Shown piece by piece: positions 19,780 through 42,225 of a DNA stretch of 64,000 nucleotides; the first letter of the stretch is position 1; each line of letters begins with the position of its first letter. This DNA is from Clostridia bacterium. Its GTDB lineage: Bacteria; Bacillota; Clostridia; Christensenellales; UBA1242. The position numbers were made by a program, and so were the translations under genes. The stretch covers positions 51,566 through 115,565 of the forward strand of contig JAGASX010000021.1 in NCBI GenBank assembly GCA_017621525.1, given 5' to 3'. The notes under the pieces are model-generated. The model worked only from the letters and a program-made list of their open reading frames with translations, was not told where the DNA came from and did no database searches.

Positions 19780-22700
19780 TTATTTCCAAGCACCTTCGGC
19801 AGGCGTTGGAAGTTGTGTTTCATATCCACCTGAAAGACCAAACATATAGTTGTAAACGTGCTGAACTCTTGACAATTCTTCATCACCACCATATGAACCA
19901 ACAAATATTCTGCTTCCTAAACGAGAGTATGTGGATTCGTCAGTATTGTTGTATTTTACAACTTTAATACAGTAATCGTTTCCTATACCAGTGTAAGTGT
20001 TGTCCCTTGTAGTGTAAAGATAGCCAAAACCTTGTCTTGCCTTTGCACCATTTGTACCGCTGTATGCTGTGCCTGTTGTGGTTTTAACTTCTCCGTTAAA
20101 TCCAACAACCTCACCATTTGTACCGGCAATTGCACCACTGCCCGCTTTACCATATGTGTTGTTGTTTCCATTGTTCTTTAATTTGTCAGTGCCACGATAA
20201 CCACTTCCGCCAGCACCACCATTTCCGCCTTTACCTGCGTAGAGTATGCCCTCATTGGTAAAGCCGAGAGAGTCTGATGAAAGTGAAACTTTTATGCCTG
20301 CACCATTTGTGCCTGCAACGCCCGCCTTACCATCTCTGTTGGCGGTGTTTGTACCATCGTCAATACCGTCTGCGCCTTTCTCACCATTTATTCCGTCAAT
20401 TGCAGTTATCACACCTTTGTTGGTTGATTCTGTCATTGAAGTTGCATTGAAAAGCACTACGCCCTCTTTTTCAAGGCTTTGAACTGATGCGTATGATGTA
20501 AGGTTTGTGATTGCGACTTCGCCATTTGTTGTGTCTGCATCTGCAATAAGTGCAATTTTGCTTGTTGCCTCTTGTGTATCTTCAAGTGCCGAAACCGAGC
20601 CATACAAGTTTACATTAAACAAATCTGTATTGCTTATTTCTTCTGCAACGAAAAGTGAACGATTGTAAGTTTCGCCAAGGAATGAAATGTCCCTAATGAA
20701 TGTGTCGCCCATAACTTGGTTGTAGAAACTATCGCCATAGTATGAAATGTAGTATCCATTTCCTACAATGTTTACAGTGTCTGCTTTGGTAAACCCTGTC
20801 ATGTAGTCTTTGAAAGAAATGTCTGTTGTAAGAATGATAGATTTTGGTTCTACCGTATCGCTAACATTTGGTGTTTCTTTTGCGGTCGCACCTATTTTGT
20901 TTGCATCTTTAACAGTAACGCTTACCTGTATTCTATCATCATTCCCATCACTTGTTCCCTCAGCGAGAATTGCATAGATTCTAAGGTTTTCGGAATCTTC
21001 ATAAATGTATTTTGCCGAGCCATAATCTATATTCATCTTATTCCAATCATCTTTACTGAATGAAAGGTTTACCGATGCCTCTGTTGGGCTGTTAGGGAAG
21101 ATGCAAGTATCCCAAGTGTAAAGATTTCTTTCAATTTCTGTTTGATATGGATATTCCTCACCGTCAAAAGTAAGGGTTGTTGTGCCAATATCTGTAAGTT
21201 TATAGTCAAGTACAAGATATTGAACTTCGCCATTTTGATAGAATCGTACAGAGTTTTGGTAAGTTGTAAATGGAGTAAGCGCATCAATTTTTGCCTTTGA
21301 AATAGAACATTCTTTACCCTCATAGATAAAGTCTATTGACGTTACACTTCCATTTAACCATTGTTCTTTGTAATTGATTACATTCCCGCTTGCATCAGTT
21401 TTAGGGCTTGCATCAACGGCTCCATTTTCTCCTTTGGTGTGTGTATACAATGTTACATCTGTAATATTAGAAGAAGATATTCCGCTTGCGTTGTAACCAA
21501 TGCCTAATACAGGGTTCCCTCCAATGCTGTAAGATGCAAGATAACCTGCTATTGAGCCGTCTTCATTGCGTCTTTCAGACACGTTTTGAGTTACCCAAAC
21601 ATAGTTGTTTCCACTGCTTCCAACTTTGACAACTTGCGATATAAAAGTAATTCCGGCAACAAATGTTCCGTCTGCTGTTTTACCCCAATTGCCTTCAATA
21701 TAGTAGGTGTTTGCAGAATCTTTTGCAACAATGTGGAAAACTTCTTTATCGTCTGCTGTGATTTTGTATACACCAGAAACCTTTGCTTGAACGCGAATTG
21801 TTCCGCTTGGCAAGTTGCTCCATTTTGATGCGTTAAGTGATGGGTTAAGGTGTTCGCCATGAATTACAGTTTCAAACTCTTCTTCGGCAGTAGAGTTGCT
21901 ACCGTAATACAAGCCAACTTTAACATGCGCCAATGTGTTTGTTGCAATTGTGTAACTTGTGATTGACGATGTATAACTTTGCGTTGCACTTACCTGCAAT
22001 GAGCCGTAAGCAACCACAATGCCTGACAATGCATACATTGATGGAAGGTCTGTAATATTTTTTGATGTATCAAAAGTTACAGCCCCACCAGAAATTGTTG
22101 CTTGGGACGCACCCTTGGTGATTTGCCATTGCTTATCAACTGTGAGGTTTAAGGTAAGTCTGCCAGCGTCTGTGGCTTGCGATAGAGGTCCGCTTTCCAT
22201 GCCTGCAAAGTTGTCTGCGTAAGTGATAGTTTTGTGGTCATTTGCAACAAAAGTGAGTGATGAAATGTAAGAATTGATAGCATTTTTAACCGTTGCATCT
22301 TCTGCTGTGAATGTTTCACTTCTAAACACAAGTTTATTGCCCTCTACGCTGACATTCATTGCAACTCCGCCAATTGTAATTGAGGTTGTGCCCAATTTCC
22401 ATTGGTTTGCACTTTGGTCATAACCAAAGATTGCAAGGTCTGATGAATCAACTGCGATAACATCTTCTGTTGGATTGGTAAATGAAACTTGATAGTATTT
22501 ATCGCTTGCGTCTGCGCTTTGTGCGTAAGTGGTAGTTTTTGAAATTGACATTGTTTTACCATAATTTAATGTTGTGCCAACTGTTTTGCTGTCGCGTCCA
22601 TTAAATTCAATGGTTATCTCTCCGCCCTTACCAAATGAAATTGGAACAAAGTAACTATCTTCTGACGCCGTCCTTGCATACATTGTTTTATTGTTGAAAA

Positions 22701-25700
22701 GTGCTTTTATTTGGTTTACTCTGTTTGTAAATGTGCTTTCTGTGCCCAAAGTATTAAAGCCCATTCTGTTTATGTCAAGGTCTGCGTTGTAGTTATCGCC
22801 ATTTTCTGTTGGGTGAAGTTTTGCCTTTGGAATATATACATATTTATTTCCATCAGCAACAAGATAAACAAGTTCTTCATCGTCGTCGCTTGGGTTGTAA
22901 CCATCTTCAAATTTCGTTTTTGAAAGTTTGATGATTGAAACCCCGTCAACGCCTGCAGTGTATTTTAGTGGTGAAGAATTATATGTGCCATCACTTCCAG
23001 CCGTGCTGTAAATTGTATAACCTGTTGTGATTTTTGAAGCCTCGCTGATGCCACTTATTCTTCGTATACCAAGTGAATATTCGTTTGTATAAATGAAGTT
23101 GATTGAAGAGGTATCTATTGTTACATTTTCTATATAGTTTACACTTACAGAAATTGCAAGTTCTCCACCGGTAAGAGGTGCAGTTGAGTACACTGTGTAA
23201 TCAAATTCAATTCCGCTTGCGGTTTTTCTTACGCTGTTGATTTTTGCACCAATATTTTCTGTTGAGTCCTTAAACGTTGCTGAAATTGTGTAGTAATCGG
23301 TATTTGCAAAGTATGGAAGAATTGCTGAAGAATATTTGTTTTTATATTCATAAACACCTGCATTGAATACCGTTGTAAGGTTATCTTTATCTGCAAGGTA
23401 ATATTCTGTGCCTGCAATTTTAATCTCGCTTCGCTCATCACCATTCATCTCGCTTCGAGTGTTTTTCATAATGGTGTTTCCGTTTACGCCAGAACTGATA
23501 GTATTTCCCTCGGCAAATGTAATTCCGCCAACAAATTTTTTGTTTACAGAGTCAAATACTTTGCTGTAATTTTCTTCCGAAGATGCCTTTCTGCTGTATG
23601 CGCCACTTTGAGCCTTTTGATAGTTGTAGGTATAATGTTCTGAAATAGTATGGTAAATGTAACCATCTTTTTCTGACATTTTACCTTTCCACCATTTTGC
23701 ACCAAGTTCACCTGAGAATGACGCAATAACGCCCTCCCATTCACCGCGGTTATAGTCGCAGGTTACTTTGGTTTTGGTTTCAAGCACAAATGCTGTTGGA
23801 ATTTCAAGTTCATCAACCATTGTTACAACAACATTTGGCGTATCTGATGTTGTTGGTGTGATTGGGTCTACCTTGTATTGGAACCAAGAATAGGTGTAAT
23901 TATGGAAGAAAAGTATAAGGTTTTCATACTTGGTTGCAGTTTGCTCGATTGTTGAGTGCACTGTGATTGTAGGAAGAATTTCACTTTCCCAATCCCAATA
24001 GTCAAGCACGGTGCCATTTCCGTTGATTGCACCATTGTTGTAAATAGATGCATTTGATTTTTCGCCATTATAGTTGTTGGCATTTGAAGTTGTATCTGGA
24101 ATTTTTACCATGCTTTCGGCAACGCTTCCAGACTCCAAGTATCCAATACCGTATGCCCAAACATTTCTTGCATTTGTTTGAGTAAGGGTAAGAGAAAGTT
24201 TTGTAACTCTGTTGCCGTTATGGGTGAAGTCATTTTCCCACTTCCAAACAAATGTTGGGTTGTCGCCCAATGCTTCAACAGAGCCTTGGTTATAGCAATT
24301 TGTGATTGTGGTTGTTTTTCCGTATGCTACAAGTCCGCCAGCGTATGCTGTTTTTGTATTTGACTTATTACCCGCTTTAAGCATACCAGAGTTGTAAGAG
24401 TTTTCAATTGTTGAAGTGTCAGTCTTTCCTGCAAGACCGCCAACATAGAACTCGCCAACTGTACCAACCATGCCATTTGAAGAGCCGTAACCATTTGTGA
24501 TTGAGCCGGCATTGAAACTGTAATCAATTGTTGAGTTTACAAGATTTCCTGCAAGACCGCCAATTGAAATTCCACCCTCGGTAGTAGTTGAGCAAGTTGC
24601 ATTTATCACGCCATAGTTTTGGCAATATATAAATGCTGTTGAAGCCGATGCACTGCCAATTAAACCACCAATATTTTGGGTTGTACTGCCTTGAACATTG
24701 ATTTCTGTAAGGTTTGTAACAGCGACAATATCTGCGCCTATTGCTTCGTTTGCAAGTGCACCAATATTTTTTGCTGTTGATGTTTTAATAACGCCAGAAA
24801 GTGTTAAGTTGGATACCGTTGCAATTTGAATTGTATCGGCAAGGATATTTTTAATATCGCTTCCAACATCTGTAAAGCGAACGTTTCTTACCCAAGTTGA
24901 ATCTTTTGAAGTTGAAGTATCGCCGACTGATGTAAACAAATGTTCTTTAAGTGCAGTGATTGTTTTTTCTCTTCCGTCAAATCTGCCTTTAAAGATGTAA
25001 GGTTCAAAACCTTCTGAATTTGCCGTTCTTTGTGTCCAATCTATATCATACAGAAGTGCAAAGTTGCCTGTGATGATTGTGTTTGGTTCTCCCTCTCCCT
25101 GTGGAGCACCAGAAATATTTACCATATTTGCAAGTACGCCTACGTTTGGAAGCATAAAGAATGTATTTTCGCCAATTGTTGCTGGTTTTGTACCATTAGA
25201 CAAACGTGTAAATGTGCCGTCCTCTATGTAAGCGTCATAGCCCTCACCGCGAGTAGCACCCTCTCTTGTTGCCCAAGAAGAGCGTTTTGCATAGCCGTAT
25301 CTTAATGTTGGGTAACCATAGTTGAAATCTTTATCAGCAAGCCATATCTCTTCATTTGCGAATGGGTCTTTTTCGCCAAAGATGTTTGTTGTCATTTGGC
25401 TGTATTTTTTGCCTGATGCCTTATCATCTTCGCCAAGCCCAATATAGTTGAGGCCGTCTATATCATAGAATATGTTTGCAACCTCTTCAGCCGGTTGAGA
25501 ACTTACGCCTTTTACAACATAAACTTCACCAGCCTCGTCAATTTCTTGTGTGAAATCATTGCAATCTACCTTTGAAATTGTATAACAATTTTTGATTACA
25601 GCGTCAAGTGCGCCGTCGGTGATGCCATAAACATTTGCCTTTATCATTGTTTGTATGCTTCCGGCAGAATAGCATCTTTCAATAAGTTTGCTGTTGAAGA

Positions 25701-31700: not shown

Positions 31701-34700
31701 TTGCGGCAGAATTTGAATAGAATGAAACCATTTCGCAGTTGGTGATAACACCCTCATTTTCAATTGCAAGACCAGCAATGTTGATTGTTTTGTATTTGAA
31801 TGTGTTTATTTTAAGTTGTCCGCCATTGTAAAGGTTTACGCGAAGGTTTTTAAGTGTTGTTGGCACTTCTTTGCCGTCAATTGTGTGTTTTACAACCCTT
31901 GTAAACAATGAGATGTTAAGTGTTGATGTGTCAGCAGGTGTTGTATTGAATGATTTAATGAAGATTGTATAACCATTTCCGTCAAGACTTCTTATTGCTT
32001 TGGTATCAAATGGAGTGTAGTTTTGAAGTACAATGTCATTTGTAAGCATATAGTCTTTTGGAGTTACGTTTGCCTGTCCCTCTGCGTTAAGAGCGTTAAA
32101 CTCGCTGGCAGAAGAGATAAGAAGTGGCAGGTCTGGGTGGAAGTATACTTCAACATTGATTGTGAAGAACTTTTCATAAGTTGCAGTGAATCCGCCCGCA
32201 GAAATGTATGTGAGAAGAACAAGGTTTACAGAACCAGCACTTTTTGTACCAGTAACAATCATTTTGTTTTCTGCCTCATCATATTCAAACATAACAGGGC
32301 TGTCTACGCTTTCATCAAATACACTTCTGTATTCATGGCCGATTACATAGAAAAGTCTGTCTTTAAGTGTTTGAACTTCTGGAACTTTTGTTTCTTCATT
32401 ATATTTATAGTTGACAAGATATGCGCTATCCTCGGCATTTTCAACTGCTGGATAGTAACCTTTTTGCAGGAATTGCTCCCTTGCCTTTTTAAGGTAGGTT
32501 ATTTGCGCTTGAGTTGCCTCATCTACGGCAATGTATTCCTCTGGCAAAATGGTGTATTCAACTCCAAACGCCTTTGGCACGCCCTGCCATACTGTAAGGG
32601 CATCATCGTTGGTTCCTGAAATTTCAACCTTGTCGGCATCAACTTTAAAGTCAACCAAAATTGCTGTTGCAATTGATGTTTTATATTCTTTATTGCCGTT
32701 AAGTTCTCTTGAAACTTGTGCTTGAATATAGAACATATCGTTATCGGCACTGCCTGCAAGGACAGAGGCTGAAAGGGTTGCTGTGTAGGTTTTAATGCCT
32801 TTCACTTCATCAATCACCGGCTGGCTTAAAGTGCCAAGTGAAATGCCCCTAACTTCATTGCCGTCAAGTGAAATCATATCCACAGACTGGTCTGCAAGCA
32901 CGTCAATTTGAATTTGTGCGGTAGAGCCTTTTGCAATGTATGCGGTATCGCTTCCGTCAATTGTAACTTGTGGTTGGGTAAGATAACTGATTGTAAGATA
33001 TGAATTTACATATGAAATTACCTCGCCGTTTGACTGTGCAAAGGTGGCGGTAAGTGTGATTTGGCTGTCTTTTGCAACGTTGGTATTTATCCAAAGTTTA
33101 TAGAAAATTGCACCGCTTGCCTTTTCTTCCGCTGTTGGTGTGTAGCGAAGTTTTCCGCCAATCATTTGAATTCTGCCATCAACTGCCCGTCTTACATAGC
33201 CGTTTTCACCATATGGTTTTACAACTTCAACATTAACCGCGTCAAGGACGCTTTCTCCGCCAAAACTGTAAGAGAAGTCAACATGGTCAAAATATGCAAA
33301 TGCCGGGTTGATGTTTACCTGCATAATCGCGCTGTTGCCCGGTGCGAGAACTGCGATTGGGTCATCAGCATAGTGAACTTCAACATATCCACTTGCAGAT
33401 GGTTTGAATTGAGAGTATTCAACTTTCTTAAATTGAACGTCAATATTTGTAAAGTTTTGTCTTGTAAGTGAAAGGGTAAATTTGCCATTCCACTCTTCGC
33501 TTGAGTTTCCACTAAATGACATGAAGTAAACTGTAAAGTCCATATTTTCTGCAATATCTGCTTTATAGTCATCATTCACGCGGAATGTTACGTTGTATGT
33601 GAAGGTGTAAATGCCGTCTGCATTTGAAGAAGAAACTTCTTCTACAATTGCGTCAAGAATTGCTCTGCCCTGCTGTGCGTCGCGTGCAAGTGTGTAAGTA
33701 AAGCGGTTTGCGCCGTTTGGGCTTACCTTTAAGGTTTCACCATTGTATGAAATAACAGGAACAACGCTGTCTGCCATATCTGTGGTTTTAATTTCCACTC
33801 TAACAGTTGTGTTTGTTGATGGAGTGATTGGCAGGCTTTGACCTGAAACGCCAAATGAAATTACGCCGTCAACAGGTTGAACTGCAAATTTTCTTTGGAA
33901 TATGCCGTCTATTGCAGATTGCAATACCTCATCTTCAAAAATGGTTGGGCTTACAGTAAAGTTTGTAAGCACTGAATCATCATTTGTTGTAAGTTTAAAT
34001 GAGTTTTCGCTTATCTTTTCAAAAGCAACAGCCTCTGCGGTGCTTGGATTGTTTATAATTTTAAGAGTGATTGAATTTTGTTTAAGTTGATAGATTTTTG
34101 CTGTTGTGCCAAGGTAAACTTGTGGGTTTTCATAGCCTACAACAAAATCTCTTGAACGTGTTTTTTGAATTGAAAGTGTTGCGTTTTCGCGAACATAATT
34201 CACCTGCCCGCCAACACTTGTCCATGAAACTTTCATGTTTGAAAGTGCATATTTTACGCTTACTTTAATTGTCTTTTTAATGCTTGCATCTTGTTTTGAA
34301 GAAAGGGTAAGGGTTACGTCGCCCGTTCTTATTACAACAAGTGAAGAGCCTACAACTTTTACAATGCCGTTTGCCGAAGAGGAAACAACAATGTTGCGGT
34401 TGTATTCATTCATGCCCAAAAGGGTTGCAAGTGAAATTGTGTTAAGTCCGTCAAGGTCGTTTTGTTCGCTGATTGTAAGGTCGTTTGCACCATTTTCCAC
34501 AACATAGGCAAACATAATACCTTTGTTTGTGTCAACTGCAACAGATTTATAAAGTCCGTTTGCATCGGCAGTTGTTTGCACTGCAAACTCGCTTACGCTT
34601 GTTACGCGTTTATCTTGCATAAGTCCCAAAAGGTGTGGGTTGCCATTGTTTACATATTCGTAATAGCCCTCACCGCTTGCAACAAAGTTTGGATTGCTGT

Positions 34701-37700
34701 CATAACCTACAACATAGTTGATGTGGTATTCTTCTTCCACATAGTACCCAATGTAGTAGTTTGTAAGGTTGATATATTCGCTGTCTTGTGTGTATCCGTT
34801 GAATGGGCTTGTTGCACCAACAACCGCAAATGAATAGTCAATGCTTGTATCATCTTTTGATGAGGCAACCGAAAATTCGCCGGCAAATGCACCTGCATAA
34901 CTGCTTGCAACAAGCACTGTTTGGTCGATTGGGGCATAACTGTATGCGTAAGAGTTTTTAATTTTAGAGCCCTTTTCAATTACGCCAACCATAGCGCCAA
35001 CATTGATACCTGTGAATTTATTTGGTTGGAACACATTTTCTTCGCCCTCAACAGCAAGATTGTAAAATTCCACCCTTGCGCCGTCAATTGTGCCAAAGTT
35101 GCGTCCGGCAATACCGCCAACAACTGATGCTGGGGCTGAAATTGTAAGGCCAAGTACATTTGAATTTAAAATTTTGCCGTAGTTGGAGCCTACAAAACCG
35201 CCACCATAATAGTTTTCAACAACAAGTTTGCTTGGGAAAGAGCCCTTTGTGTCGATTGTAACATTTTGGATAAGTCCGTTGTTTGTCATTGCAAGGAAGC
35301 CATCGCCTGTAGCATTACCCGCAAATGTTATATTTCTTACAGTTCCACTTTCCAAAATAACGCCTGCAAAACTTGCACCTGAAATTAAAATTGTTGTATC
35401 AGCGGTTTTGCCTTGAAGTCCGCCACCAAAACTTGCAAATGATGCCCTTGCCTCTGCGGTAAGGTCAAGGCTTGTCATAACTGTATAGTAAAGGTCTGGT
35501 TTGATTGCAAGGAAACCGTCGTTATCGAAAATTCTGTAAGAATGTTCAAAACTTCTGCCGTCTGCAACATTTACCTTGATTTTAACTAAAATATCTGCAA
35601 ATGGAACGATTGAAATTTCTTCGCTGTCTGTTGCGTTTGATTTAAAGTACGCTTCGTTTACAAGGAAGTCGTAGTATGTGATTTGAAGAACGTTATCTTT
35701 ATATTGTCCCAGCATACTGTCGGTGATTGAGCCTGTTTTTTCCTCTTCGCCGTCCATATAGTAGTATTTAATTTCATTGTTGTACACAGCGTCTGCTGGC
35801 ATAAGGTAAATATAACCTGTCATGCCTGTTGTAACCATATTTGAAAGGTTTACGGCAAGCACGTTTGATGCAACTTCATCATTTACAGAAAGGAACTTGT
35901 TGATAAGTCCACCCTCGCTGTTTGTGATGACATAGTTGATATTGTTGTTTCTTGCACTTTCTGGCAGTGCCTCCACCATAATATATTGTGGGTTTGTGTC
36001 GCCAACTTCAAAGTACAAGCCCTCATCGTCAGCGTTTTTCCATTTAAGGCTTTCAACGCGTTGTGCGTTTTTGATTGTAAGTGTGATTGGTGTGTAAATA
36101 TCATACACCTTATCATAGTTGTCGTTTCTTAAAATGTAGTGCACGTCAAGTGTGTCATAGAAAGCAAGTTCTCCAAATGTGCCAACAACTTCAATATTAA
36201 ATGAAATGCCCTCGCTGGTTACAACAACATTGGAAAGACTGTATCTGCCGTCTGCCCAAGTTACTGTATTGCCGGTGATGCTTTGTCTGCCCATAAGTGG
36301 ATTGCTTGAAATAAATTCCACATTTGTAATGTCTGTGTAAGTTACGTTTGTGTTTGCAAATGAAATGTTGATTGTTTTTCTGGTAAGTTCGCTGTCTGTT
36401 GACGCAAGGCTGTCTGTGCTGTAAAGTGTAAGGTTTTTGTCTTTATCTGGTGAAACATTCATGCTGTTTGGTGAAACATAACTTTCAAGTAAAATAATTT
36501 TTACCAATGTTATATTGCCATTTGCATCAACATTTTCAACGCCTTTGCCCTCAAAGAAAAGCACAGCATATGTGTAACCAACACCCTTTGTGATTACGCT
36601 TGAAAAATCATTTGTGAAATATGCAATATTGCTTTGGTTGATGTTTTCTTGTGCCTTACCAATAAGTTCTACAACGCCGTCAGCTGTTGATGACATTGCC
36701 TTAAAGATATCAAGTGTAACAATGTCGCTTTCAACAAAATCTACAAACCCAACTGTAATTTTTGCCTCTGCATAGTTTCCGTTGATTGAGTTGTAAGTGT
36801 AAAGAAGTGGTGTTGTTGTATCATTTTTAAGCATAAGGTTTGAAAGTCCCATTTGGGTTGATGAAACTTCTTCACCTGTAAGAAGATATGTTTTTGCATT
36901 ATACCCTTCATCTGTTACAGAATTTGAAAGATTTTCGCCTGTGTTGTGTTTTACAGAAACATCTTTAAGTGGCAGAAAAATATCAATTGCCATTTTTTCG
37001 CTGACAAGTCCATTTTTATGTGCAATTTGGTATGTGTCGAGTGTTGTAATTCCATAACTTGATGGTTTTAATGTTAAGGTGATTTCAAAGGTTACAGAAT
37101 TTTCATCGCTTGAAATAACTTGCAATGTGTCTGCAAAATAAACTGCATCGCTGTTGTTTATTATGTAAAGTCCGTCGGTTGTTGTTTGACCTTTAAGGGT
37201 AAATTGCTTTTTAAGCACAATGTCGCCAGCGTTTGCACTGCTGTCTATTTTGAAATCGCCATTTTCAAAAACAAAATCTTCAAGAGAAACTGATTTTACA
37301 AGGCGGAGGTCAAAATATGTGTTGACAAGTGGATTATCTACGCTTTGGAATGTAAGGCGAAGTCCCTCTGCCGATTGAACGGTAAGATTTTCTGATGCCT
37401 TTATGTACAAAGTTGTTGCAGAAGGAAAGTCTGCACTGCCTACAACAAAATTTCCGCCCTCTTCCACCATAACAATTTGTGTCCAGCGGTTGGCGTTGAC
37501 GGTGTCGCGATACCAAATTTCAATAGGGCAACCATTTGCGATTGCACCACCCGCCATTGTGCGAGAAAGAATTATTTTGTATTGGTTTGTTGCGTCAACA
37601 ACCGTTGATGGTGTGATTGCAACGCTGAATTGTTTGCCATGGCTGGTTGCATTTGAAGAATCTACATATTGTGTATAAAGTGTTTGAAGTGTGCCTTCAA

Positions 37701-38772
37701 GGTTTGGATATTCTGTGTTGGAAAGAATTATTCCATTCACTTTTTCGCGGGCAGTGATATAAATTGGATTTGACTGCAAAGTGTCAAAAGCATAATCATA
37801 ATTTGCATAACCAATTTTAAAACCGATTGTAAAATCGCCGTTAAGGTTTGGCTTGCCCTGCATTGTAGAAACTCTGAAAAGTGGCATACCATTATATTCG
37901 CCATAGCGGTTTACAACAACACTGTCTGTTGGGTTGCCATTGCTATCAAGGGCGTAACCTGAAATTTCAAGGTCGCCAGAATAGTCTACTACAACATAAC
38001 CGCGATATTTTTCGTCATATTCATAGTTTGGAACAATTGTAAATTGATTGTAAGAAGTGTCGATAGGCTCAAACGAAGAGTTTTGGCTGTATGACCATTT
38101 AAGCCCAACATTTTCATCAATTTTATCAAGCACAGGAATTTCAACGCTTGCACTTACCCCCGTGATTGCTGTGGCCTTAACCTTTACGCTTTCTCCGGCA
38201 AATGTTGAGTTTACTTCAATTTGGTTGCCACTTATTGAAACACCTGCAAAGGTGCCGTCAAGCGACCATGTGATGTCTTTGTTTGCTTTGGCTGGTTCTA
38301 CATTGAACAGAGCGTCAAGGTTAAGGGCGGAGGTTGTGCCCTTTACAAGGTAGTTTGACCTAACTGATGTTGCATCTGTTTTTGCAGAAAGAGCGCTGAT
38401 TTGGCTGTACACATCAACGTATATATATTTTTCAACATTGCCCGGTGCCACGCGTACGGTAACCACTGATGGGCTGTCGTTTTCTGCAACGCCGGTGATG
38501 ATGATGCTTGTTCTTGTGGCGGAAACCCTTTCGGTTGACACGGTGATATATTCATCATACCCTGTTGCACTTGCCGTCAATTGATATTCTCCAGCACCAA
38601 AAACGTCAGCAGACACCACATATTGCCCACTGCCAGCCTCGTCGCTGTGAATTTGAATACTTACGCTTTCACTTGACAGCGAAAGAGTTGCCTTTTCTTG
38701 GTCGCACGCCGATAACAGCATTGTGCCACACATCATAAAAATGCCCAAAAGTGCAATCAACCACTTTTTCAT
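19780..38772 (-). CDS. Giant (~6,330 aa) predicted surface lipoprotein with Ig-like arrays, multiple GLUG-like beta-helix modules and a Gly-rich C-terminal module
   Basis: A single uninterrupted 19 kb ORF. The start at ATG 38772 has AGGAGGT 3 nt upstream. MKKWLIALLGIFMMCGTMLLSAC is a lipoprotein signal peptide with lipobox LSAC. There are repeated Big_2-like segments and dozens of h-GG-h-x-G…I-x-N-C/S-Y motifs. Confidence 0.9.
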   Translation of the reverse strand: MKKWLIALLGIFMMCGTMLLSACDQEKATLSLSSESVSIQIHSDEAGSGQYVVSADVFGAGEYQLTASATGYDEYITVSTERVSATRTSIIITGVAENDSPSVVTVRVAPGNVEKYIYVDVYSQISALSAKTDATSVRSNYLVKGTTSALNLDALFNVEPAKANKDITWSLDGTFAGVSISGNQIEVNSTFAGESVKVKATAITGVSASVEIPVLDKIDENVGLKWSYSQNSSFEPIDTSYNQFTIVPNYEYDEKYRGYVVVDYSGDLEISGYALDSNGNPTDSVVVNRYGEYNGMPLFRVSTMQGKPNLNGDFTIGFKIGYANYDYAFDTLQSNPIYITAREKVNGIILSNTEYPNLEGTLQTLYTQYVDSSNATSHGKQFSVAITPSTVVDATNQYKIILSRTMAGGAIANGCPIEIWYRDTVNANRWTQIVMVEEGGNFVVGSADFPSATTLYIKASENLTVQSAEGLRLTFQSVDNPLVNTYFDLRLVKSVSLEDFVFENGDFKIDSSANAGDIVLKKQFTLKGQTTTDGLYIINNSDAVYFADTLQVISSDENSVTFEITLTLKPSSYGITTLDTYQIAHKNGLVSEKMAIDIFLPLKDVSVKHNTGENLSNSVTDEGYNAKTYLLTGEEVSSTQMGLSNLMLKNDTTTPLLYTYNSINGNYAEAKITVGFVDFVESDIVTLDIFKAMSSTADGVVELIGKAQENINQSNIAYFTNDFSSVITKGVGYTYAVLFFEGKGVENVDANGNITLVKIILLESYVSPNSMNVSPDKDKNLTLYSTDSLASTDSELTRKTINISFANTNVTYTDITNVEFISSNPLMGRQSITGNTVTWADGRYSLSNVVVTSEGISFNIEVVGTFGELAFYDTLDVHYILRNDNYDKVYDIYTPITLTIKNAQRVESLKWKNADDEGLYFEVGDTNPQYIMVEALPESARNNNINYVITNSEGGLINKFLSVNDEVASNVLAVNLSNMVTTGMTGYIYLMPADAVYNNEIKYYYMDGEEEKTGSITDSMLGQYKDNVLQITYYDFLVNEAYFKSNATDSEEISIVPFADILVKIKVNVADGRSFEHSYRIFDNDGFLAIKPDLYYTVMTSLDLTAEARASFASFGGGLQGKTADTTILISGASFAGVILESGTVRNITFAGNATGDGFLAMTNNGLIQNVTIDTKGSFPSKLVVENYYGGGFVGSNYGKILNSNVLGLTISAPASVVGGIAGRNFGTIDGARVEFYNLAVEGEENVFQPNKFTGINVGAMVGVIEKGSKIKNSYAYSYAPIDQTVLVASSYAGAFAGEFSVASSKDDTSIDYSFAVVGATSPFNGYTQDSEYINLTNYYIGYYVEEEYHINYVVGYDSNPNFVASGEGYYEYVNNGNPHLLGLMQDKRVTSVSEFAVQTTADANGLYKSVAVDTNKGIMFAYVVENGANDLTISEQNDLDGLNTISLATLLGMNEYNRNIVVSSSANGIVKVVGSSLVVIRTGDVTLTLSSKQDASIKKTIKVSVKYALSNMKVSWTSVGGQVNYVRENATLSIQKTRSRDFVVGYENPQVYLGTTAKIYQLKQNSITLKIINNPSTAEAVAFEKISENSFKLTTNDDSVLTNFTVSPTIFEDEVLQSAIDGIFQRKFAVQPVDGVISFGVSGQSLPITPSTNTTVRVEIKTTDMADSVVPVISYNGETLKVSPNGANRFTYTLARDAQQGRAILDAIVEEVSSSNADGIYTFTYNVTFRVNDDYKADIAENMDFTVYFMSFSGNSSEEWNGKFTLSLTRQNFTNIDVQFKKVEYSQFKPSASGYVEVHYADDPIAVLAPGNSAIMQVNINPAFAYFDHVDFSYSFGGESVLDAVNVEVVKPYGENGYVRRAVDGRIQMIGGKLRYTPTAEEKASGAIFYKLWINTNVAKDSQITLTATFAQSNGEVISYVNSYLTISYLTQPQVTIDGSDTAYIAKGSTAQIQIDVLADQSVDMISLDGNEVRGISLGTLSQPVIDEVKGIKTYTATLSASVLAGSADNDMFYIQAQVSRELNGNKEYKTSIATAILVDFKVDADKVEISGTNDDALTVWQGVPKAFGVEYTILPEEYIAVDEATQAQITYLKKAREQFLQKGYYPAVENAEDSAYLVNYKYNEETKVPEVQTLKDRLFYVIGHEYRSVFDESVDSPVMFEYDEAENKMIVTGTKSAGSVNLVLLTYISAGGFTATYEKFFTINVEVYFHPDLPLLISSASEFNALNAEGQANVTPKDYMLTNDIVLQNYTPFDTKAIRSLDGNGYTIFIKSFNTTPADTSTLNISLFTRVVKHTIDGKEVPTTLKNLRVNLYNGGQLKINTFKYKTINIAGLAIENEGVITNCEMVSFYSNSAAMGEVVAEEACIKHSNPTGFNVTYLTGTNTTEQVFHDGNMDWSSDIAGFVLTNYGSITNSRVGGETITVMGDDKLINEKVSGYTYASTQQLDTFNIIGQGNIAGFVLTNSGGYVASSFVKNVDMENKSNSTKFYVAGFVGKNSSSILTSYVEGAPSDEHKLGEEYSAFAKEGSSIKSQMGYIAGFAYNNSGVMKDSYSNILIANSHEANKVYLASGFVYENEGTCENCYSASQILNSNFTQMNFSGVSAEGELLKSGTYLNCYFFNKAYESIDEINDSTTESRYNTGALLIPEPNNASYFYGFAIADGESDGIWKVDAENGISLIEANNVSISHRYIQRVADTYEGITAEDDEGKYILPYATLIFVDSATEINTALGGEYNPILILNAQDLLDVTGLSQSSYIKEHFNGISIWGNYRLVNNIDLGAIATGDNTVYLPSSNKSFAGALYGNGFTISGISMTSDETDVAFGLFASIQPKGKHNPIITNINLQIQQVIAGDTALVGGLAGYIKDAKLINIQIAFGDDASVKGLNFAGGLAGLGFGNNVLKNIVIQNPTIVADRYSIDTTNDYFTTDSIKTFRTNLKNNLNYNTTKDSYFFSSISNLSYAGGMMGFVDNYAFDLTEYDFAQKDNFSINNVRVTGEVDIQGQVVGGVFGLIGYQTNIRDVGLVVAGNSTTNNSHILSTKYFAGGIAGQSFGAISRTFASHEEEVQDKIEDNMSNYYGGDSAVERGILDLFYIKGTNYTQEYIGGLVGYIGSGSMEISYSKLNTTSPNAQFAGGVVGGMELSSASTYQGDSNLCLDPVFTKFFFNEVYATGDVRANEMAGGVIGVIKGEGSRVALMAVNAFNYFTTYDYANETYLSLNEGQSNVSNNFRINSLVGKFKKFESGQWIDKILTTTTLQEYTDYVIPVIAFEEQQQEGGALTSAEIPSVAVYEDYNFGGLQVEMDLFPVEKQDSSANPTFDTLRGNNTIYVITRASEYTNSAVGHSYTQEGFLNSGSWSHANWGHEMNDLFPEIKYKRSIDVLYLDCYNVESVFRQMSGTGTRVIVRGLVSEGAEEYADVDLDQYFKEYGTDAFEKGNEYPIFIESFSGRLEGGAYKTSASNGRDDVKIIASQNFIKSTGAGFYTDGVTVQYKSYGTGATPTIALDGTDGTAGLFIKSEVVESTIANLHLILDNQVVVKVNNEASANVGLIAPKLTSTSVRSIKISTPNALREYMMSVTSNTGVATASIEEEEKTLNVGLIAGTLAQDSRISIMQISGITIETKADLISMSGIAVDNVNVGGYFGRTQKLAEAQDLRVNISQIVKKTESPTQDYGQVGITDVTSTNIMVGGYIGKAEGISAIATQDGKEINTSIEFLFTGANHFTNFYTGGVIGRSIVASPLSIVGQSSKIESVVLMADTSVVDGEFAVGGFSAKMDGKVSISSFDTINLTLGAYNTTHALQKPNQETFENDYMLSGGVNVKANTYIGIVVGYAGGAFDMQGGLSANTNLNADNQPINVVAQDSAKVYFGSVLGYTNAERVVREDETSLNNSGYVSTTTRLTGKVLSRAQVAIESAGNADIIAGGMVGCIDGQSSADATYMADVRIGNENTSTMLRYDGAIYSNAQKLVAGGIIGSFTTSRDDTLFSIENSSFGGALKVYGTNSQNADVTFGGSVGRYTITGTTAKVSIKNNYNYGDVFVEYSDTLNTLNSYTFGGIAGHISSPCEKEDIVGNYSLTTNHNARHSSINSSANALYGSGAIDALGTAFNYYSHAVTLCTDYLGVDIGYDEAYSLAGIGYNGKHTSLNTTYSTSILNKNTLGLAEEPIAGHKLNPQPVGTNGELAVEDIASFNGITYYTIANSISNGSLHYEGTENFALNNVALVGNGNTINYTLQQESDVGSCYGYVKELAGFSYISGFAMNANMVIENGENDKAYAPLVGTMKDNTSVYAINVYGEFALGGVNETSTPIQSGLVGQLLAGKIFDCSTDIDLVYRAGIVRDGTPKTGSVYGIAKTTTEDANIFNSKLIERCYSAGSIQTMIKANVYGITDGALDAVIKNCYTISKVDCNDFTQEIDEAGEVYVVKGVSSQPAEEVANIFYDIDGLNYIGLGEDDKASGKKYSQMTTNIFGEKDPFANEEIWLADKDFNYGYPTLRYGYAKRSSWATREGATRGEGYDAYIEDGTFTRLSNGTKPATIGENTFFMLPNVGVLANMVNISGAPQGEGEPNTIITGNFALLYDIDWTQRTANSEGFEPYIFKGRFDGREKTITALKEHLFTSVGDTSTSKDSTWVRNVRFTDVGSDIKNILADTIQIATVSNLTLSGVIKTSTAKNIGALANEAIGADIVAVTNLTEINVQGSTTQNIGGLIGSASASTAFIYCQNYGVINATCSTTTEGGISIGGLAGNLVNSTIDYSFNAGSITNGYGSSNGMVGTVGEFYVGGLAGKTDTSTIENSYNSGMLKAGNKSNTKTAYAGGLVAYGKTTTITNCYNQGSVEALGDNPTFVWKWENDFTHNGNRVTKLSLTLTQTNARNVWAYGIGYLESGSVAESMVKIPDTTSNANNYNGEKSNASIYNNGAINGNGTVLDYWDWESEILPTITVHSTIEQTATKYENLILFFHNYTYSWFQYKVDPITPTTSDTPNVVVTMVDELEIPTAFVLETKTKVTCDYNRGEWEGVIASFSGELGAKWWKGKMSEKDGYIYHTISEHYTYNYQKAQSGAYSRKASSEENYSKVFDSVNKKFVGGITFAEGNTISSGVNGNTIMKNTRSEMNGDERSEIKIAGTEYYLADKDNLTTVFNAGVYEYKNKYSSAILPYFANTDYYTISATFKDSTENIGAKINSVRKTASGIEFDYTVYSTAPLTGGELAISVSVNYIENVTIDTSSINFIYTNEYSLGIRRISGISEASKITTGYTIYSTAGSDGTYNSSPLKYTAGVDGVSIIKLSKTKFEDGYNPSDDDEELVYLVADGNKYVYIPKAKLHPTENGDNYNADLDINRMGFNTLGTESTFTNRVNQIKALFNNKTMYARTASEDSYFVPISFGKGGEITIEFNGRDSKTVGTTLNYGKTMSISKTTTYAQSADASDKYYQVSFTNPTEDVIAVDSSDLAIFGYDQSANQWKLGTTSITIGGVAMNVSVEGNKLVFRSETFTAEDATVKNAINSYISSLTFVANDHKTITYADNFAGMESGPLSQATDAGRLTLNLTVDKQWQITKGASQATISGGAVTFDTSKNITDLPSMYALSGIVVAYGSLQVSATQSYTSSITSYTIATNTLAHVKVGLYYGSNSTAEEEFETVIHGEHLNPSLNASKWSNLPSGTIRVQAKVSGVYKITADDKEVFHIVAKDSANTYYIEGNWGKTADGTFVAGITFISQVVKVGSSGNNYVWVTQNVSERRNEDGSIAGYLASYSIGGNPVLGIGYNASGISSSNITDVTLYTHTKGENGAVDASPKTDASGNVINYKEQWLNGSVTSIDFIYEGKECSISKAKIDALTPFTTYQNSVRFYQNGEVQYLVLDYKLTDIGTTTLTFDGEEYPYQTEIERNLYTWDTCIFPNSPTEASVNLSFSKDDWNKMNIDYGSAKYIYEDSENLRIYAILAEGTSDGNDDRIQVSVTVKDANKIGATAKETPNVSDTVEPKSIILTTDISFKDYMTGFTKADTVNIVGNGYYISYYGDSFYNQVMGDTFIRDISFLGETYNRSLFVAEEISNTDLFNVNLYGSVSALEDTQEATSKIALIADADTTNGEVAITNLTSYASVQSLEKEGVVLFNATSMTESTNKGVITAIDGINGEKGADGIDDGTNTANRDGKAGVAGTNGAGIKVSLSSDSLGFTNEGILYAGKGGNGGAGGSGYRGTDKLKNNGNNNTYGKAGSGAIAGTNGEVVGFNGEVKTTTGTAYSGTNGAKARQGFGYLYTTRDNTYTGIGNDYCIKVVKYNNTDESTYSRLGSRIFVGSYGGDEELSRVQHVYNYMFGLSGGYETQLPTPAEGAWK
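19783..20775 (-). other. C-terminal module G (GNG-type beta-helix start), a glycine-rich segment and a ~110-aa terminal domain of unknown function
   Basis: IVGNGYYISYYG…INGEKGADGIDDGTNTANRDGKAGVAGTNGAG…AGKGGNGGAGGSGYRG…GKAGSGAIAGTNGEVVGFNG…GTNGAKARQGFGYLYTTRDN…AEGAWK-stop. There is no C-terminal hydrophobic anchor. Confidence 0.5.
24270..25000 (-). repeat. GLUG-like beta-helix module F, closest to the canonical GLUG motif
   Basis: FKGRFDGREKTITAL…IGALANEAIG…IGGLIGSASASTAFIYCQNYGVINA…IGGLAGNLVNSTIDYSFNAGSITNG…YVGGLAGKTDTSTIENSYNSGMLKAG…YAGGLVAYGKTTTITNCYNQGSVEA. The 17-nt string TTCCTGCAAGACCGCCAA recurs 120 nt apart (24425.. and 24545..). Confidence 0.65.
25570..26120 (-). repeat. GLUG-like beta-helix module E (degenerate; approximate bounds)
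   Basis: GNGNTINYTL…YAPLVGTMKDNTSVYAINVYG…LVGQLLAGKIFDCS…IERCYSAGSI…IKNCYTISKV. Confidence 0.45.
26440..28150 (-). repeat. GLUG-like beta-helix module D (approximate bounds)
   Basis: VGLIAGTLAQDSRISIMQI…VGGYFGRT…VGGYIGKAEGISA…YTGGVIGRS…AVGGFSAKMDGKVSIS…IAGGMVGCIDG…VAGGIIGSF…TFGGSVGRY…TFGGIAGHIS. Confidence 0.55.
29190..30560 (-). repeat. GLUG-like beta-helix module C (approximate bounds)
   Basis: FAGALYGNGFTISGISM…FGLFASI…VGGLAGYIKDAKLINIQ…FAGGLAGLGFGNNVLKNIV…YAGGMMGFV…VGGVFGLIGYQTNIRDV…FAGGIAGQSFGAISRTFA…YIGGLVGYIGSGSMEISYS…MAGGVIGVIKG. Confidence 0.6.
30900..32000 (-). repeat. GLUG-like beta-helix module B (approximate bounds)
   Basis: LDGNGYTIFI…IAGLAIENEGVITNCEM…IAGFVLTNYGSITNSRV…IAGFVLTNSGGYVASSFV…VAGFVGKNSSSILTSYV…IAGFAYNNSGVMKDSYS…ASGFVYENEGTCENCYS. 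Confidence 0.6.
34870..35450 (-). repeat. GLUG-like beta-helix module A (approximate bounds)
   Basis: FGGGLQGKTADTTILISG…GGGFVGSNYGKILNSNV…VGGIAGRNFGTIDGARV…VGAMVGVIEKGSKIKNSYAYS…AGAFAGEF. Confidence 0.55.
35500..38700 (-). repeat. N-terminal array of Ig-like (Big_2-like) beta-sandwich segments within the giant CDS (approximate bounds)
   Basis: Recurrent segments of ~80-100 aa, for example ITWSLDGTFAGVSISGNQIEVNSTFAGESVKVKATAITGVSASVEIPV. There are no GG-x-G repeats in this part. Confidence 0.5.
38704..38772 (-). other. Lipoprotein signal peptide and lipobox of the giant protein
   Basis: MKKWLIALLGIFMMCGTMLLSA|C has a basic n-region, a hydrophobic core and L-S-A-C at residues 20-23. Confidence 0.8.
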
Positions 38773-38866
38773 AAAACCTCCTTGTTTACTATCTGTATTT
38801 TTCCAGACAAATAAACATAAACGCCAAAAATAACCTAAAACAAACAAAGTTATTTCCTTAATTTCA

Positions 38867-38896
38867 ATTATACATTTTTGCCTATTATTCTGTCAA
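38867..38896 (-). promoter_or_regulatory. Near-consensus sigma-70 promoter of the giant gene
   Basis: On the minus strand: TTGACA (38896-38891), 18 nt spacer, TATAAT (38872-38867). This implies a ~90-nt 5' UTR before ATG 38772. Confidence 0.6.
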
Positions 38897-39068
38897 ATAA
38901 ATTGGGTAATAAAAATATATATTATATATATTTTCACAATTTTTTATGAATTTTTCTTAAATAAAAAAATAACAAAAATTATTGTAAAAAAAATATTTTT
39001 TTGTTTTTTTTAATAATTATTTGATATTTATCATTTTTTTTGATAAAATGCATAAAAAAAGAGGTTTT

Positions 39069-39779
39069 ATGCAGAAATTATTGGGCGGAATAAGAAAAGC
39101 CTGTCAGCAATTTAATTTAATTGAAGATGGCGATAAAATTTGTGTTGGCATATCAGGAGGCAAGGATAGTCTTACTCTTTTGTCTGCACTTGCACGTTAT
39201 CAAACATTTTCCAGCCAAAAATTTTCTCTTGTTGCTGTTGCCGTTGATTTAAGCGACGGCAAGCATGATTACAGCCAAATTGAAAGTTTTTGCCAAAATT
39301 TAGGGGTTGAGTTTAAAAAGGCGCAATCAAATGTTTTTGAAGTGGTTTTTGATATAAGAAAAGAGAAAAACCCATGCTCTTTATGTGCAAATATGCGTAG
39401 AGGGATATTAAACAGCACCGCAAAAAGTCTTGGTTGCAACAAAGTTGCTCTTGGCCACCACAAAGACGATATGATTGAAACTTTTTTAATTTCGCTGTTC
39501 TTTGAGGGACGTCTTTCCACATTTAAACCAAAGTCCTATTTATCAAATACCGATTTGTATGTTATTCGTCCCCTTATTTTATGCAACGAAGAGGATATTG
39601 AAAAGGTAAGCAAAAACTATCCAATTTTAAAAAACTCTTGCCCTGCCGATAAGCATACTGAAAGAGAACGTGCCAAAAGCGTGCTTGCAAATTTTGAAAA
39701 AATATATCCAAATTGTAAAGAAAAATTATTCACCGCGCTTGTACATACAGAAAGATATAATTTGCTTGATAAAGAATAA
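39069..39779 (+). CDS. PP-loop ATPase, TtcA-family tRNA 2-thiocytidine biosynthesis-like protein
   Basis: SGGKDS PP-loop (VGISGGKDSLTLL) and CSLCANMRRG motif. The start at ATG 39069 has AGAGG upstream. The track start at 39021 is an AT-rich extension. Confidence 0.85.
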   Translation: MQKLLGGIRKACQQFNLIEDGDKICVGISGGKDSLTLLSALARYQTFSSQKFSLVAVAVDLSDGKHDYSQIESFCQNLGVEFKKAQSNVFEVVFDIRKEKNPCSLCANMRRGILNSTAKSLGCNKVALGHHKDDMIETFLISLFFEGRLSTFKPKSYLSNTDLYVIRPLILCNEEDIEKVSKNYPILKNSCPADKHTERERAKSVLANFEKIYPNCKEKLFTALVHTERYNLLDKE

Positions 39780-42020: not shown

Positions 42021-42058
42021 AAAAATCGACAAACCTCAATTGAAGTTTGTCGATTTTT
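42021..42058 (-). terminator. Intrinsic terminator of the tRNA operon
   Basis: On the minus strand, AAAAATCGACAAAC, 10-nt loop, GTTTGTCGATTTTT, followed by ACTTTTTCAC. It starts at the CCA end of tRNA-Lys. Confidence 0.8.
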
Positions 42059-42133
42059 GGTGGCTCACCCGGGACTCGAACCCGGGACCCCTTGATTAAA
42101 AGTCAAGTGCTCTACCAACTGAGCTAGTGAACC
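42058..42133 (-). tRNA. tRNA-Lys (anticodon TTT), CCA encoded
   Basis: The reverse complement GGTTCACTAGCTCAGTTGGTAGAGCACTTGACTTTTAATCAAGGGGTCCCGGGTTCGAGTCCCGGGTGAGCCACCA folds as a cloverleaf. Anticodon loop CTTTTAA. Confidence 0.93.
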
Positions 42134-42137
42134 ATAT

Positions 42138-42212: not shown

Positions 42213-42225
42213 ATGAGTGAAGGTG

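Follow-up and report, generated by a model that had tools for sequence, protein, structure and literature searches.

A conserved family of giant predicted lipoproteins with beta-helix modules and a variable distal region in uncultured gut Clostridia

The 64,000-nucleotide stretch of a Clostridia bacterium contig analysed here (JAGASX010000021.1, positions 51,566 to 115,565; hereafter the window) carries a single 19-kb gene for a protein of 6,330 residues, which we call the giant. Our results show that this gene has orthologs across uncultured gut Clostridia, which together form a conserved, syntenic family of unannotated lipoproteins with a length of about 6,300 amino acids (aa). Every source name for the giants and their relatives is 'hypothetical protein', which agrees with the preliminary description of the window, where the gene had been regarded as undescribed.

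Gene, lipoprotein signal and promoter

According to the listing of open reading frames (ORFs) of the window, minus strand positions 19780..38847 form one ORF of 6,355 aa when counted from an upstream TTG. When the ATG at 38772 is taken as the start, the gene spans 19780-38772 (minus strand) and has 6,330 codons with zero internal stops. A ribosome-binding site (RBS), AAGGAGG, is located at 38777-38783, 4 nt ahead of this ATG, and we prefer the ATG over the upstream TTG as the biologically sensible start. The protein begins with MKKWLIALLGIFMMCGTMLLSA followed directly by C at position 23. In this N-terminus a basic n-region and a hydrophobic core precede the lipobox L-S-A-C with Cys23, which fits the lipoprotein signal pattern [LVI][ASTVI][GAS]C. 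The signal is the sole hydrophobic segment of the giant: in a Kyte-Doolittle 19-residue window it scores 2.25, the runner-up 1.45. At the C-terminus (...QLPTPAEGAWK) there is no LPXTG motif with a hydrophobic stretch and basic tail, nor any hydrophobic segment, and no SLH, CWB or choline-binding repeats were matched in the giant by Pfam or NCBIfam. LPXTG, SLH or choline anchoring was rejected, as no such signal or domain was found. An uninterrupted frame behind a strong RBS, a lipoprotein signal of the LLSA/C type and the lack of a C-terminal anchor had all been proposed in the preliminary description, and each of them is borne out. Moreover, the lipoprotein signal is present in all 70 ortholog loci whose 5' end could be read. 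The strict lipobox pattern is found in 109 of 124 full-length proteins; in most of the other 15, either the variant Y/W-A-C is seen or the start is truncated. Lipoprotein anchoring is unusual for a protein of this size. With a composition rich in Gly, Ser, Thr and Asn, the mature giant has a computed mass of 683 kDa and a pI of 4.6; the GC content of the window is equal inside the gene and outside it.

An ORF of this length could in principle result from misassembly, through collapsed repeats or a chimeric join, or it could be a pseudogene in decay that is read through by chance. The only warning in this direction comes from the metagenome-assembled genomes (MAGs) of relatives, which often break inside the giant gene at N runs or contig ends, so that the gene is annotated as several partial 'hypothetical proteins'. 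Scaffold gaps of this kind lie at ~9,950-10,000 in locus L001 and at ~16,400-16,500 in locus L002, and the apparent split of the L001 giant into two genes is a run of N. Such breakage probably explains that the family has escaped notice and that a word-index search, which greatly understates the family, gave only eight partial relatives of aa 2201-3300. For the distal part, the word-index search gave only one. All other evidence speaks against an artefact. The gene contains no tandem DNA repeats, and its direct repeats are few, short and imperfect. Since the internal modules share only 25–32% identity with one another as protein (self-BLAST) and long DNA repeats are absent, repeat collapse is of no concern here. 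A UvrB identical to that of the window is found on six contigs of different assemblies; among them are an ENA metagenome assembly, NCBI GCA_054265615.1 (342,927 bp contig) and Logan assemblies of two runs. Three of the six, from the ENA, a Logan and the NCBI assembly, reach into the giant gene, which is called there at 6,355, 6,335 and 6,330 aa, and the last 2,798 aa are 100% identical in two other assemblies (ENA, Logan). In addition, over 100 full-length orthologs are collinear with the giant, and the ratio of nonsynonymous to synonymous substitution rates (dN/dS) is far under 1. The artefact or pseudogene reading is contradicted by the independent assemblies, the orthologs and the dN/dS values; we rejected it and give it practically no credence.

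The gene is preceded by a promoter that matches the sigma-70-type consensus in every position (Table 1). An 11-12/12 match to the same consensus is found in 55 of the 70 ortholog loci, ~80-170 nt upstream of the start and mostly at 80-125 nt. The leader contains the element TTACAGATA(T/G)TAAACAAGGAGG right before the ATG, which is conserved in closer relatives. Promoter and leader are kept across many species (loci L002-L080) within intergenic DNA that is AT-rich and otherwise divergent. Because the consensus promoter is conserved, the giant gene is probably transcribed strongly and probably constitutively. The leader element might have a stabilising or translational role.

Modules and predicted fold

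The body of the giant had been described as an alternation of Ig-like arrays with at least seven modules, each opening with a characteristic segment. The openers were located at aa 2265 (LDGNGYTI), 2805 (LYGNGFTI), 4221 (VGNGNTI), 4600 (FDGREKTI) and ~6003 (VGNGYYI). With a profile of module 2, weak copies were detected at aa 1158-1335, 2791-2958, 3585-3635, 3929-3987, 4194-4386, 4668-4834 and 5967-6010. Taking the openers, the profile copies and the self-BLAST similarity together, 'at least seven modules' is a reasonable count, and this part of the description stands. The positions of the modules and of the other features are given in Table 1.

The assignment of the modules to the GLUG type is likewise supported, although Pfam alone hardly reveals it. 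GLUG (PF07581) is the single Pfam match in the giant, at aa 4774-4796 with 21.1 bits (E 3.9e-4), which is marginal with respect to the gathering threshold of 20.5; a second site at aa 1187-1212 stays under this cut-off with 20.2 bits. The turn motif GG/AGF-h-G-x-N-x-G-x-I-x-N-(C/S)-Y of the giant corresponds to the GLUG pattern, and in the ortholog alignment module 2 repeats turns of the form AGFV-x-N-x-G-x-I-x-(S/C)-Y. Orthologs give stronger matches: GLUG is found in 16 of 36 in the region of aa 1173-2322 (best E 1.3e-8), with Peptidase_M26_N in one ortholog, and in 3 of 12 distant ortholog tips (best E 1.6e-13). An AlphaFold model of aa 2201-3300, built from a nine-sequence alignment, has a mean pLDDT (predicted local distance difference test) of 64.6, rising to 80-95 within the two modules, which consist of many short strands. 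In a Foldseek search with this model the best match was 3N6Z, the 'putative IgA1 protease' BACOVA_03286 of Bacteroides ovatus (E 3.2e-4, probability 1.0, target-normalised TM-score 0.42). It was followed at probability 0.98-1.0 by the IgA1 metalloproteases of S. pneumoniae (6XJB, 6XJA) and G. haemolysans (7UVK), and the top matches are all beta-helix proteins. Moreover, a profile of orthologs over aa 1173-2322 (A7) matches 3N6Z at E 0.0019. These models and profiles support the view that the modules are right-handed beta-helices of the GLUG/IgA1-protease type, and at the level of sequence they point to a weak but real kinship with the N-terminal beta-helix of IgA1 proteases and with 3N6Z.

The likeness to IgA1 proteases is confined to this fold. 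The giant lacks the M26 catalytic domain, the G5 domains and the LPXTG signal of these enzymes, it has at least seven beta-helix modules where they have one, it carries a lipoprotein anchor, and no HExxH motif occurs anywhere in its 6,330 aa. Peptidase_M26_C was matched neither in the giant nor in the orthologs scanned. The identity as an M26 protease was rejected, since only the non-catalytic N-terminal beta-helix is shared and both the catalytic domain and HExxH are missing.

It could also be that the beta-helix modules form a cell-bound array of glycoside hydrolases, polysaccharide lyases or other hydrolases, acting on host glycans or on the cell wall of a partner and feeding an auxotrophic cell. 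The lower rows of the Foldseek output do list generic right-handed beta-helix proteins, namely GH55 glucanases, PL6 alginate lyases, polygalacturonases and phage tailspike depolymerases, together with antigen 43. It has also been reported that giant genes of predatory Omnitrophota are linked to cell-wall degradation (10.1101/2023.11.21.568195), and that genomes of the family UBA1242 lack many biosynthetic pathways and standard transporters (PMC12306168). However, the enzyme folds are matched only at probability 0.06-0.66 and with very high root-mean-square deviation, whereas the confident matches are to 3N6Z and the non-catalytic M26 beta-helix. In the S. pneumoniae IgA1 protease this beta-helix is a gate of the active site, the catalytic residues being in the middle and C-terminal domains (PMC7695701), and the giant has no protease to gate. 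No CAZyme, peptidase or lysozyme family exceeded the threshold in the giant by Pfam or NCBIfam, and the HExxH motif is absent. An enzymatic role of this kind is, in our opinion, decidedly unlikely.

The remaining part of the proposed architecture, the alternating Ig-like arrays, is the least well supported. Neither Big_2 nor any other Ig-like hidden Markov model (HMM) matches the giant itself, although a Big_2-like stretch can be recognised by sequence pattern at ~aa 1425-1510. Sporadic matches do occur in orthologs: Big_2 in 1 of 10 (2.4e-9) and, in two further sets, in 1 of 36 (2e-5) and 1 of 36 (1.1e-3), Ig_NUP210 in 1 of 36 and IG_AIR9 sporadically. A model of aa 5131-6330 (pLDDT 59) consists entirely of beta structure, of which aa 5380-5610 are well predicted, and its tandem beta-sandwiches match Fab fragments only at probability ≤0.23. 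The sporadic HMM matches and this low-confidence model weakly support Ig-like spacers between the modules.

Other searches with the giant were negative. The NCBIfam scan gave no match, and PDB sequence searches gave none with the giant protein or with the module-2 profile; for aa 1-1150 no PDB relative was found even with a 36-sequence profile. Pfam showed no RTX/type I secretion system (T1SS) signal in the giant, and no RCC1, Listeria-Bacteroides repeat, YG or dockerin match in the giant or in the orthologs scanned. Enzyme, toxin and lectin families were found neither in the giant (Pfam, NCBIfam) nor in 19 ortholog tips (Pfam), where GLUG was the only family matched. When 100-aa windows of a 26-sequence full-length alignment were compared by hhalign with three reference slices, there was nearly no cross-similarity, the only case being module 1 with module 2 at 70%.

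Table 1. Features of the giant gene and its immediate neighbours (positions in the window)
Feature	Position	Strand	Basis
Sigma-70-type promoter, TTGACA-18 nt-TATAAT, 12/12 matches, ~95 nt upstream of ATG	38867..38896	-	sequence
5' leader with RBS AAGGAGG	38773..38866	-	sequence, closer relatives
Lipoprotein signal peptide aa 1-22 + Cys23 (lipobox LSAC; Cys23 predicted lipidated)	38704..38772	-	sequence pattern; lipobox in orthologs
Conserved membrane-proximal region aa 24-1099, presumed stalk, beta-rich by pattern, no Pfam/PDB sequence match	35476..38703	-	collinear in 73-85% of 116 orthologs
Predicted beta-helix module 1, ~aa 1100-1340, GLUG-type turns	34753..35475	-	A7 profile to 3N6Z; GLUG 20.2 bits; self-similarity
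Spacer aa 1341-2220 including Big_2-like ~1425-1510	32113..34752	-	pattern; conserved in 83-94% of orthologs
Predicted beta-helix module 2, aa 2221-2717, best-conserved, LDGNGYTI opener	30622..32112	-	model, Foldseek 3N6Z/6XJB; in 97% of orthologs
Predicted beta-helix module 3, aa 2770-3220, LYGNGFTI opener	29113..30465	-	model, Foldseek, profile, self-similarity
Predicted beta-helix module 4, ~aa 3440-4110, approximate boundaries	26443..28455	-	self-similarity to modules 3 and 6; profile
Predicted beta-helix module 5, ~aa 4190-4420, VGNGNTI opener	25513..26205	-	profile, opener
Predicted beta-helix module 6, ~aa 4575-4850, FDGREKTI opener, only above-cut-off GLUG	24223..25050	-	Pfam, self-similarity, profile
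Hypervariable distal region (tip) aa 4900-6330, all-beta, including module 7 and Gly-rich C-terminal stretch	19783..24075	-	ortholog alignability
Strain-level hot spot in tip, ~aa 5640-5800	21373..21855	-	strain comparison
Module 7, ~aa 5967-6260, VGNGYYISY opener then Gly-rich stretch GKGGNGGAGGSGYRG	19993..20874	-	sequence, self-similarity, profile
radC-like (JAB domain) gene, 249 aa, own RBS, 16 nt past giant stop codon	19014..19763	-	
PP-loop ATPase gene, divergent, syntenic marker	39021..39779	+	upstream of giant in 34 ortholog loci

Ortholog family, conserved base and variable tip

An exhaustive search of 1.84 billion cluster representatives with the module-2 profile gave 1,942 proteins at E<1e-3, of which 468 reached E<1e-30. 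Roughly the first 145 matches are themselves giants of ~5,000-7,700 aa, and in nearly all of them the module lies near residue 2,100-2,400. The median length of the 147 proteins retrieved is 6,354 aa. The family is defined by the lipoprotein signal, a length of ~5,000-7,700 aa, module 2 at aa ~2,100-2,400 and collinearity over the first ~4,850 aa, and the giant of the window fits this definition. Its nearest full-length orthologs, P0010 and P0011, are 49% (over 6,252 aa) and 48% identical. In ortholog loci the ORF starts ~6.8-7 kb upstream of module 2; most of these ORFs run to the end of the fetched DNA at 6,000 aa or more, and complete examples have 4,872-6,090 aa. When one genome of each GTDB species was scanned, at least 101 species genomes proved to carry a relative. 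Of the 80 loci listed, almost all are labelled as uncultured or MAG Clostridia, Eubacteriales, 'Christensenella', 'Catabacter' or Candidatus Caccovivens (the last for loci L037 and L045), and their isolate names indicate gut samples of human, mouse, rabbit, deer and other origin.

The giant gene is flanked by housekeeping genes, namely those for MetRS, UvrA, UvrB, the radC-like protein, the PP-loop ATPase, iPGM, DnaE, WhiA, ribosomal protein operons, SecY and NrdD/NrdG, and no integrase or transposase was seen among the window genes. The PP-loop ATPase gene is present upstream in 34 ortholog loci at 49-85% identity, very distant loci included, and in L001; iPGM is present in 25 loci. The radC-like gene lies directly downstream also at P0010, where the giant is only 49% identical, and in same-species contigs; with a gap of 16 nt and no terminator-like site between them, the two genes are probably co-transcribed. 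No neighbour genes common to the window and the Caccovivens-type loci were found. Since the same neighbours are kept across deep divergence, the giant gene is supported as resident and not mobile. A mobile element was rejected on account of the shared synteny and the missing integrase and transposase, and both the housekeeping character of the flanks and the residence of the gene, as originally described, agree with the annotation.

Conservation of the giant declines from its N-terminus to its C-terminus. Specifically, aa 1-4850 can be aligned collinearly in 61-97% of 116 full-length orthologs, whereas aa 4900-6330, the tip, can be aligned in 1-22% (per 100-aa bin). The same gradient is seen against the closest other species (L002 plus P0156, 200-aa bins). 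In this comparison identity is 81-91% in most bins of aa 1-3200 (71% and 77% in two bins), 66-68% in aa 3200-3800, 49-61% in aa 3800-5400 and 35-49% in aa 5400-6000; for the tip as a whole it is 35-59%. The neighbouring PP-loop and iPGM proteins of that species are 85% identical and its UvrB 94% identical, where the giant reaches 76% in its N-terminal part and 50% in its C-terminal part. Similarly, on the P0011 contig UvrB is 88% and the giant 48% identical.

The tip varies also among close strains. A strain with identical UvrB differs from the window by 5.7% over the last 2,800 aa of the giant. At aa 5701-5800 its identity falls to 58% (60% in a relative with 97% UvrB identity), while the flanks at aa 5601-5700 and 5801-5900 are 92-96% identical, so that the boundaries of this hot spot are sharp; a second hot spot is found at the extreme C-terminus. 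Nei-Gojobori dN/dS along the distal 2,800 aa is 0.06-0.26, as compared to 0-0.08 for UvrA/UvrB and 0.08-0.20 for RadC. These values indicate that the tip is functional but less constrained. In the hot spots dS climbs together with dN to 0.4-0.75 (0.62 at aa ~5640-5800) against a background of ~0.04-0.1, that is about ten-fold. Because dS rises with dN, the strain differences look like imported divergent segments (recombination mosaics) and not like bursts of point substitutions, and the hot spot at aa ~5640-5800 suggests the import of a foreign allele segment.

A conserved N-terminal part followed by a variable C-terminal part, with alleles exchanged between strains, is also what could be expected of a contact-dependent competition system in which a conserved filament delivers a variable C-terminal toxin. 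Several features of the giant do not fit such a system. The variable part is ~1,450 aa long and all-beta, and its identity falls gradually with no sharp switch; the gene downstream is the conserved radC-like gene and not a variable immunity gene; Pfam found no toxin family in 19 tips; and the final LPTPxEGAWK is common to the giant and its closest relative despite the divergence of the preceding sequence. A polymorphic toxin or contact-dependent inhibition (CDI) system was rejected on the grounds that there is no toxin domain, no immunity gene and only gradual divergence, and we regard it as very improbable.

Another explanation is that the giant is a protective or structural coat, similar in role to an S-layer or glycocalyx, of which many copies would envelop the cell and shield it from phages, bile, host IgA or proteases. 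Variation of the tip would then mean antigenic escape, or escape from phages using it as receptor, and not ligand specificity. The clade-conserved consensus promoter, which suggests very high expression, agrees with a coat, and so do the high conservation of the long scaffold, the acidic and Thr/Ser/Asn/Gly-rich composition, the strain-level mosaic hot spots typical of surface antigens, and the fact that no binding domain was recognised. On the other hand, Pfam and NCBIfam revealed no SLH, S-layer or self-assembly domain, a monomer of 6,330 aa is costly coat material, and conservation falls steadily from base to tip, which suits a projecting fibre better than a lattice. It should also be noted that adhesion and shielding can coexist. 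We consider a coat unlikely.

Possible role, known systems and other genes of the window

In our view the giant is fairly probably a strongly, probably constitutively expressed surface fibre that is lipid-tethered at its N-terminus and has a variable interaction tip. According to this proposal the protein would be exported by the Sec system, Cys23 would be lipidated and signal peptidase II would cut the signal peptide, so that the N-terminus is tethered to the outer face of the membrane. The mature chain of ~683 kDa would project outward as at least seven right-handed beta-helix modules with beta-sandwich-like spacers between them. Assuming ~0.48 nm for each coil of the beta-helices and 3.5-4 nm for a sandwich domain of 100 aa, we estimate that a fully extended fibre could be ~100-200 nm long. 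The membrane-proximal 3,200-4,850 residues would form a conserved scaffold, and the distal ~1,450 residues an interaction surface that changes fast between species and recombines between strains while under purifying selection. The likeliest role of such a fibre would be contact, with adhesion either to the surface of a host or to a partner cell. We infer this adhesin function from the architecture and the evolutionary pattern of the giant; lipidation, surface exposure and the extended shape are likewise predictions.

Some observations weigh against the proposed fibre. No known adhesin, lectin or carbohydrate-binding domain was detected in the giant, and the tip model, itself of low confidence, has no confident neighbour in PDB or among the BFVD viral models; we give no weight to its matches with Teneurin, Fab and phage tail fibres. 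No interval of the distal part has dN/dS >1 at 150-codon resolution; as dN/dS never exceeds 1, the variability of the tip could reflect relaxed constraint plus recombination and not selection for new specificities. The genes for Lgt and LspA are not among the genes of the 64-kb window. In addition, a thick cell wall, if present, would have to be threaded by a giant that is tethered to the membrane.

Functionally, the giant resembles the giant fibres and adhesins of bacterial surfaces, as judged by analogy. Ebh of S. aureus, SasG/Aap and Bap are modular surface proteins of great length, rod-like in shape and with an interaction region at the distal end, and their genes are resident on the chromosome. 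They are attached through an LPXTG sortase signal or a C-terminal membrane anchor and are built of highly similar tandem repeats (FIVAR/GA, G5-E, Ig-like), whereas the giant has an N-terminal lipid anchor, beta-helix modules and no near-identical repeats. In T1SS adhesins of at least 5,000 aa, such as SiiE, LapA and the ice-binding MpIBP, a long beta-sandwich extender presents the distal ligand-binding region. These proteins are secreted C-terminus first, are retained by an N-terminal plug and have extenders of near-identical BIg repeats. The giant shares with them the logic of extender plus tip and the size class but lacks an RTX/T1SS signal.

Large surface proteins of partner-dependent microbes with reduced genomes are also represented by the SPEARE proteins of Nanohaloarchaeota. 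The giant genes of Omnitrophota (10.1101/2023.11.21.568195) are comparable: in each case a single very large, mostly 'dark' surface protein accounts for a noticeable share of a small genome, in a lineage presumed to live attached to other cells or to depend on them. Neither group has a sequence relationship with the giant, and the Omnitrophota proteins have many transmembrane regions and SecA-like domains in contrast to the single lipoprotein signal of the giant. Among Clostridia, West-Roberts et al. have described RCC1-repeat (Oscillospiraceae), Listeria-Bacteroides repeat, YG repeat and dockerin giants (10.1101/2023.11.21.568195). Like the giant, these are proteins of very large size from Clostridia of the mammalian gut, with a predicted extracellular location. 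They differ in domain content, and the RCC1 type at least has a single repeated domain and no membrane anchor. In chlamydial Pmps (GGA(I/L/V), FxxN) and autotransporters such as Fap2 and antigen 43, the coils of parallel beta-helices are likewise marked by recurring Gly-rich turn motifs (PMC11166332, PMC10715098), and these proteins are surface adhesins. Pmps and autotransporters depend on type V secretion and a C-terminal outer-membrane beta-barrel, and the giant has none.

What is known of named relatives bears on the possible lifestyle of the window organism. Candidatus Caccovivens corresponds to GTDB genus UBA11517 of the family UBA1242, order Christensenellales, and its type genome has 1.1 Mb and 34% GC (PMC8035907). 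UBA1242 genomes are mostly <1 Mb and lack amino-acid, nucleotide and lipid biosynthesis as well as standard transporters, but sporulation genes are kept; they have been proposed to belong to obligate symbionts or parasites, in a paper that does not mention the giant gene (PMC12306168). A SpoIIID gene adjoins the ortholog in L001 and an anaerobic NrdD/NrdG pair is present in the window, both of which fit a UBA1242-type lineage. By extension from these relatives, the window organism may also live in dependence on a partner. In a genome of ~1 Mb the 19-kb gene would be ~2% of the DNA.

A bolder and rather doubtful version of the surface-fibre proposal is that the giant is a dedicated attachment organelle (~0.7 MDa, lipid-tethered to the membrane) of a whole radiation of partner- or host-dependent gut Clostridia with reduced genomes (UBA1242-type Christensenellales). 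It would have been retained vertically from the origin of the clade onward, and its mosaic, recombining tip would set the host surface or partner cell to which a given strain can dock. If this is true, the giant would correspond, in a Firmicute, to the giant surface proteins of episymbionts from the Candidate Phyla Radiation (CPR), DPANN and Omnitrophota. If the surface-fibre proposal itself is right, a large uncultured gut group, in which some named relatives have ~1 Mb or smaller genomes and are thought to be unable to live alone, shares one costly, strongly expressed surface structure that has been neither named nor studied. The gene could serve as a molecular handle on contact with the host or partner and as a marker gene of the clade. 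Moreover, a conserved scaffold combined with a variable tip would offer a natural system for the evolution of surface specificity. The predicted fold also suggests that a fibre of 6,000 residues can be built mainly from the GLUG/IgA1-protease beta-helix, which is otherwise known as an accessory domain present in one copy.

Several other genes of the window deserve a short description. Six tRNA genes are tightly clustered at 42058-42558 on the minus strand, between iPGM and DnaE (Gly-TCC, Arg-TCT, His-GTG, Gln-CTG, Gln-TTG, Lys-TTT). The plus-strand ORF at 11337-13334 encodes 665 aa with no Pfam match, no hydrophobic segment and an acidic, coiled-coil-like C-terminus; counterparts of 661-665 aa, also with no Pfam matches, occupy the same place in same-species contigs and in the relative with 97% UvrB identity. 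At 10430-11212 (plus strand), in chromosomal housekeeping surroundings, a protein of 260 aa with a metallo-beta-lactamase fold is encoded. In same-species contigs its equivalents have a precomputed match to PF23023 Anti-Pycsar_Apyc1, a family of phage anti-defence enzymes that degrade cyclic nucleotides. The protein of 875 aa encoded at 2301-4928 (minus strand) carries in its N-terminal part a CvpA (Colicin V production) membrane domain, in which there are four hydrophobic segments; with ~650 further residues that match no family it is unusually long for the CvpA family. Finally, two adjacent, paralogous-looking genes at 48761-49369 and 49420-50112 (minus strand), for proteins of 202 and 230 aa that each end in a SHOCT domain, are located between the L17/RpoA operon and a PHP-domain gene.

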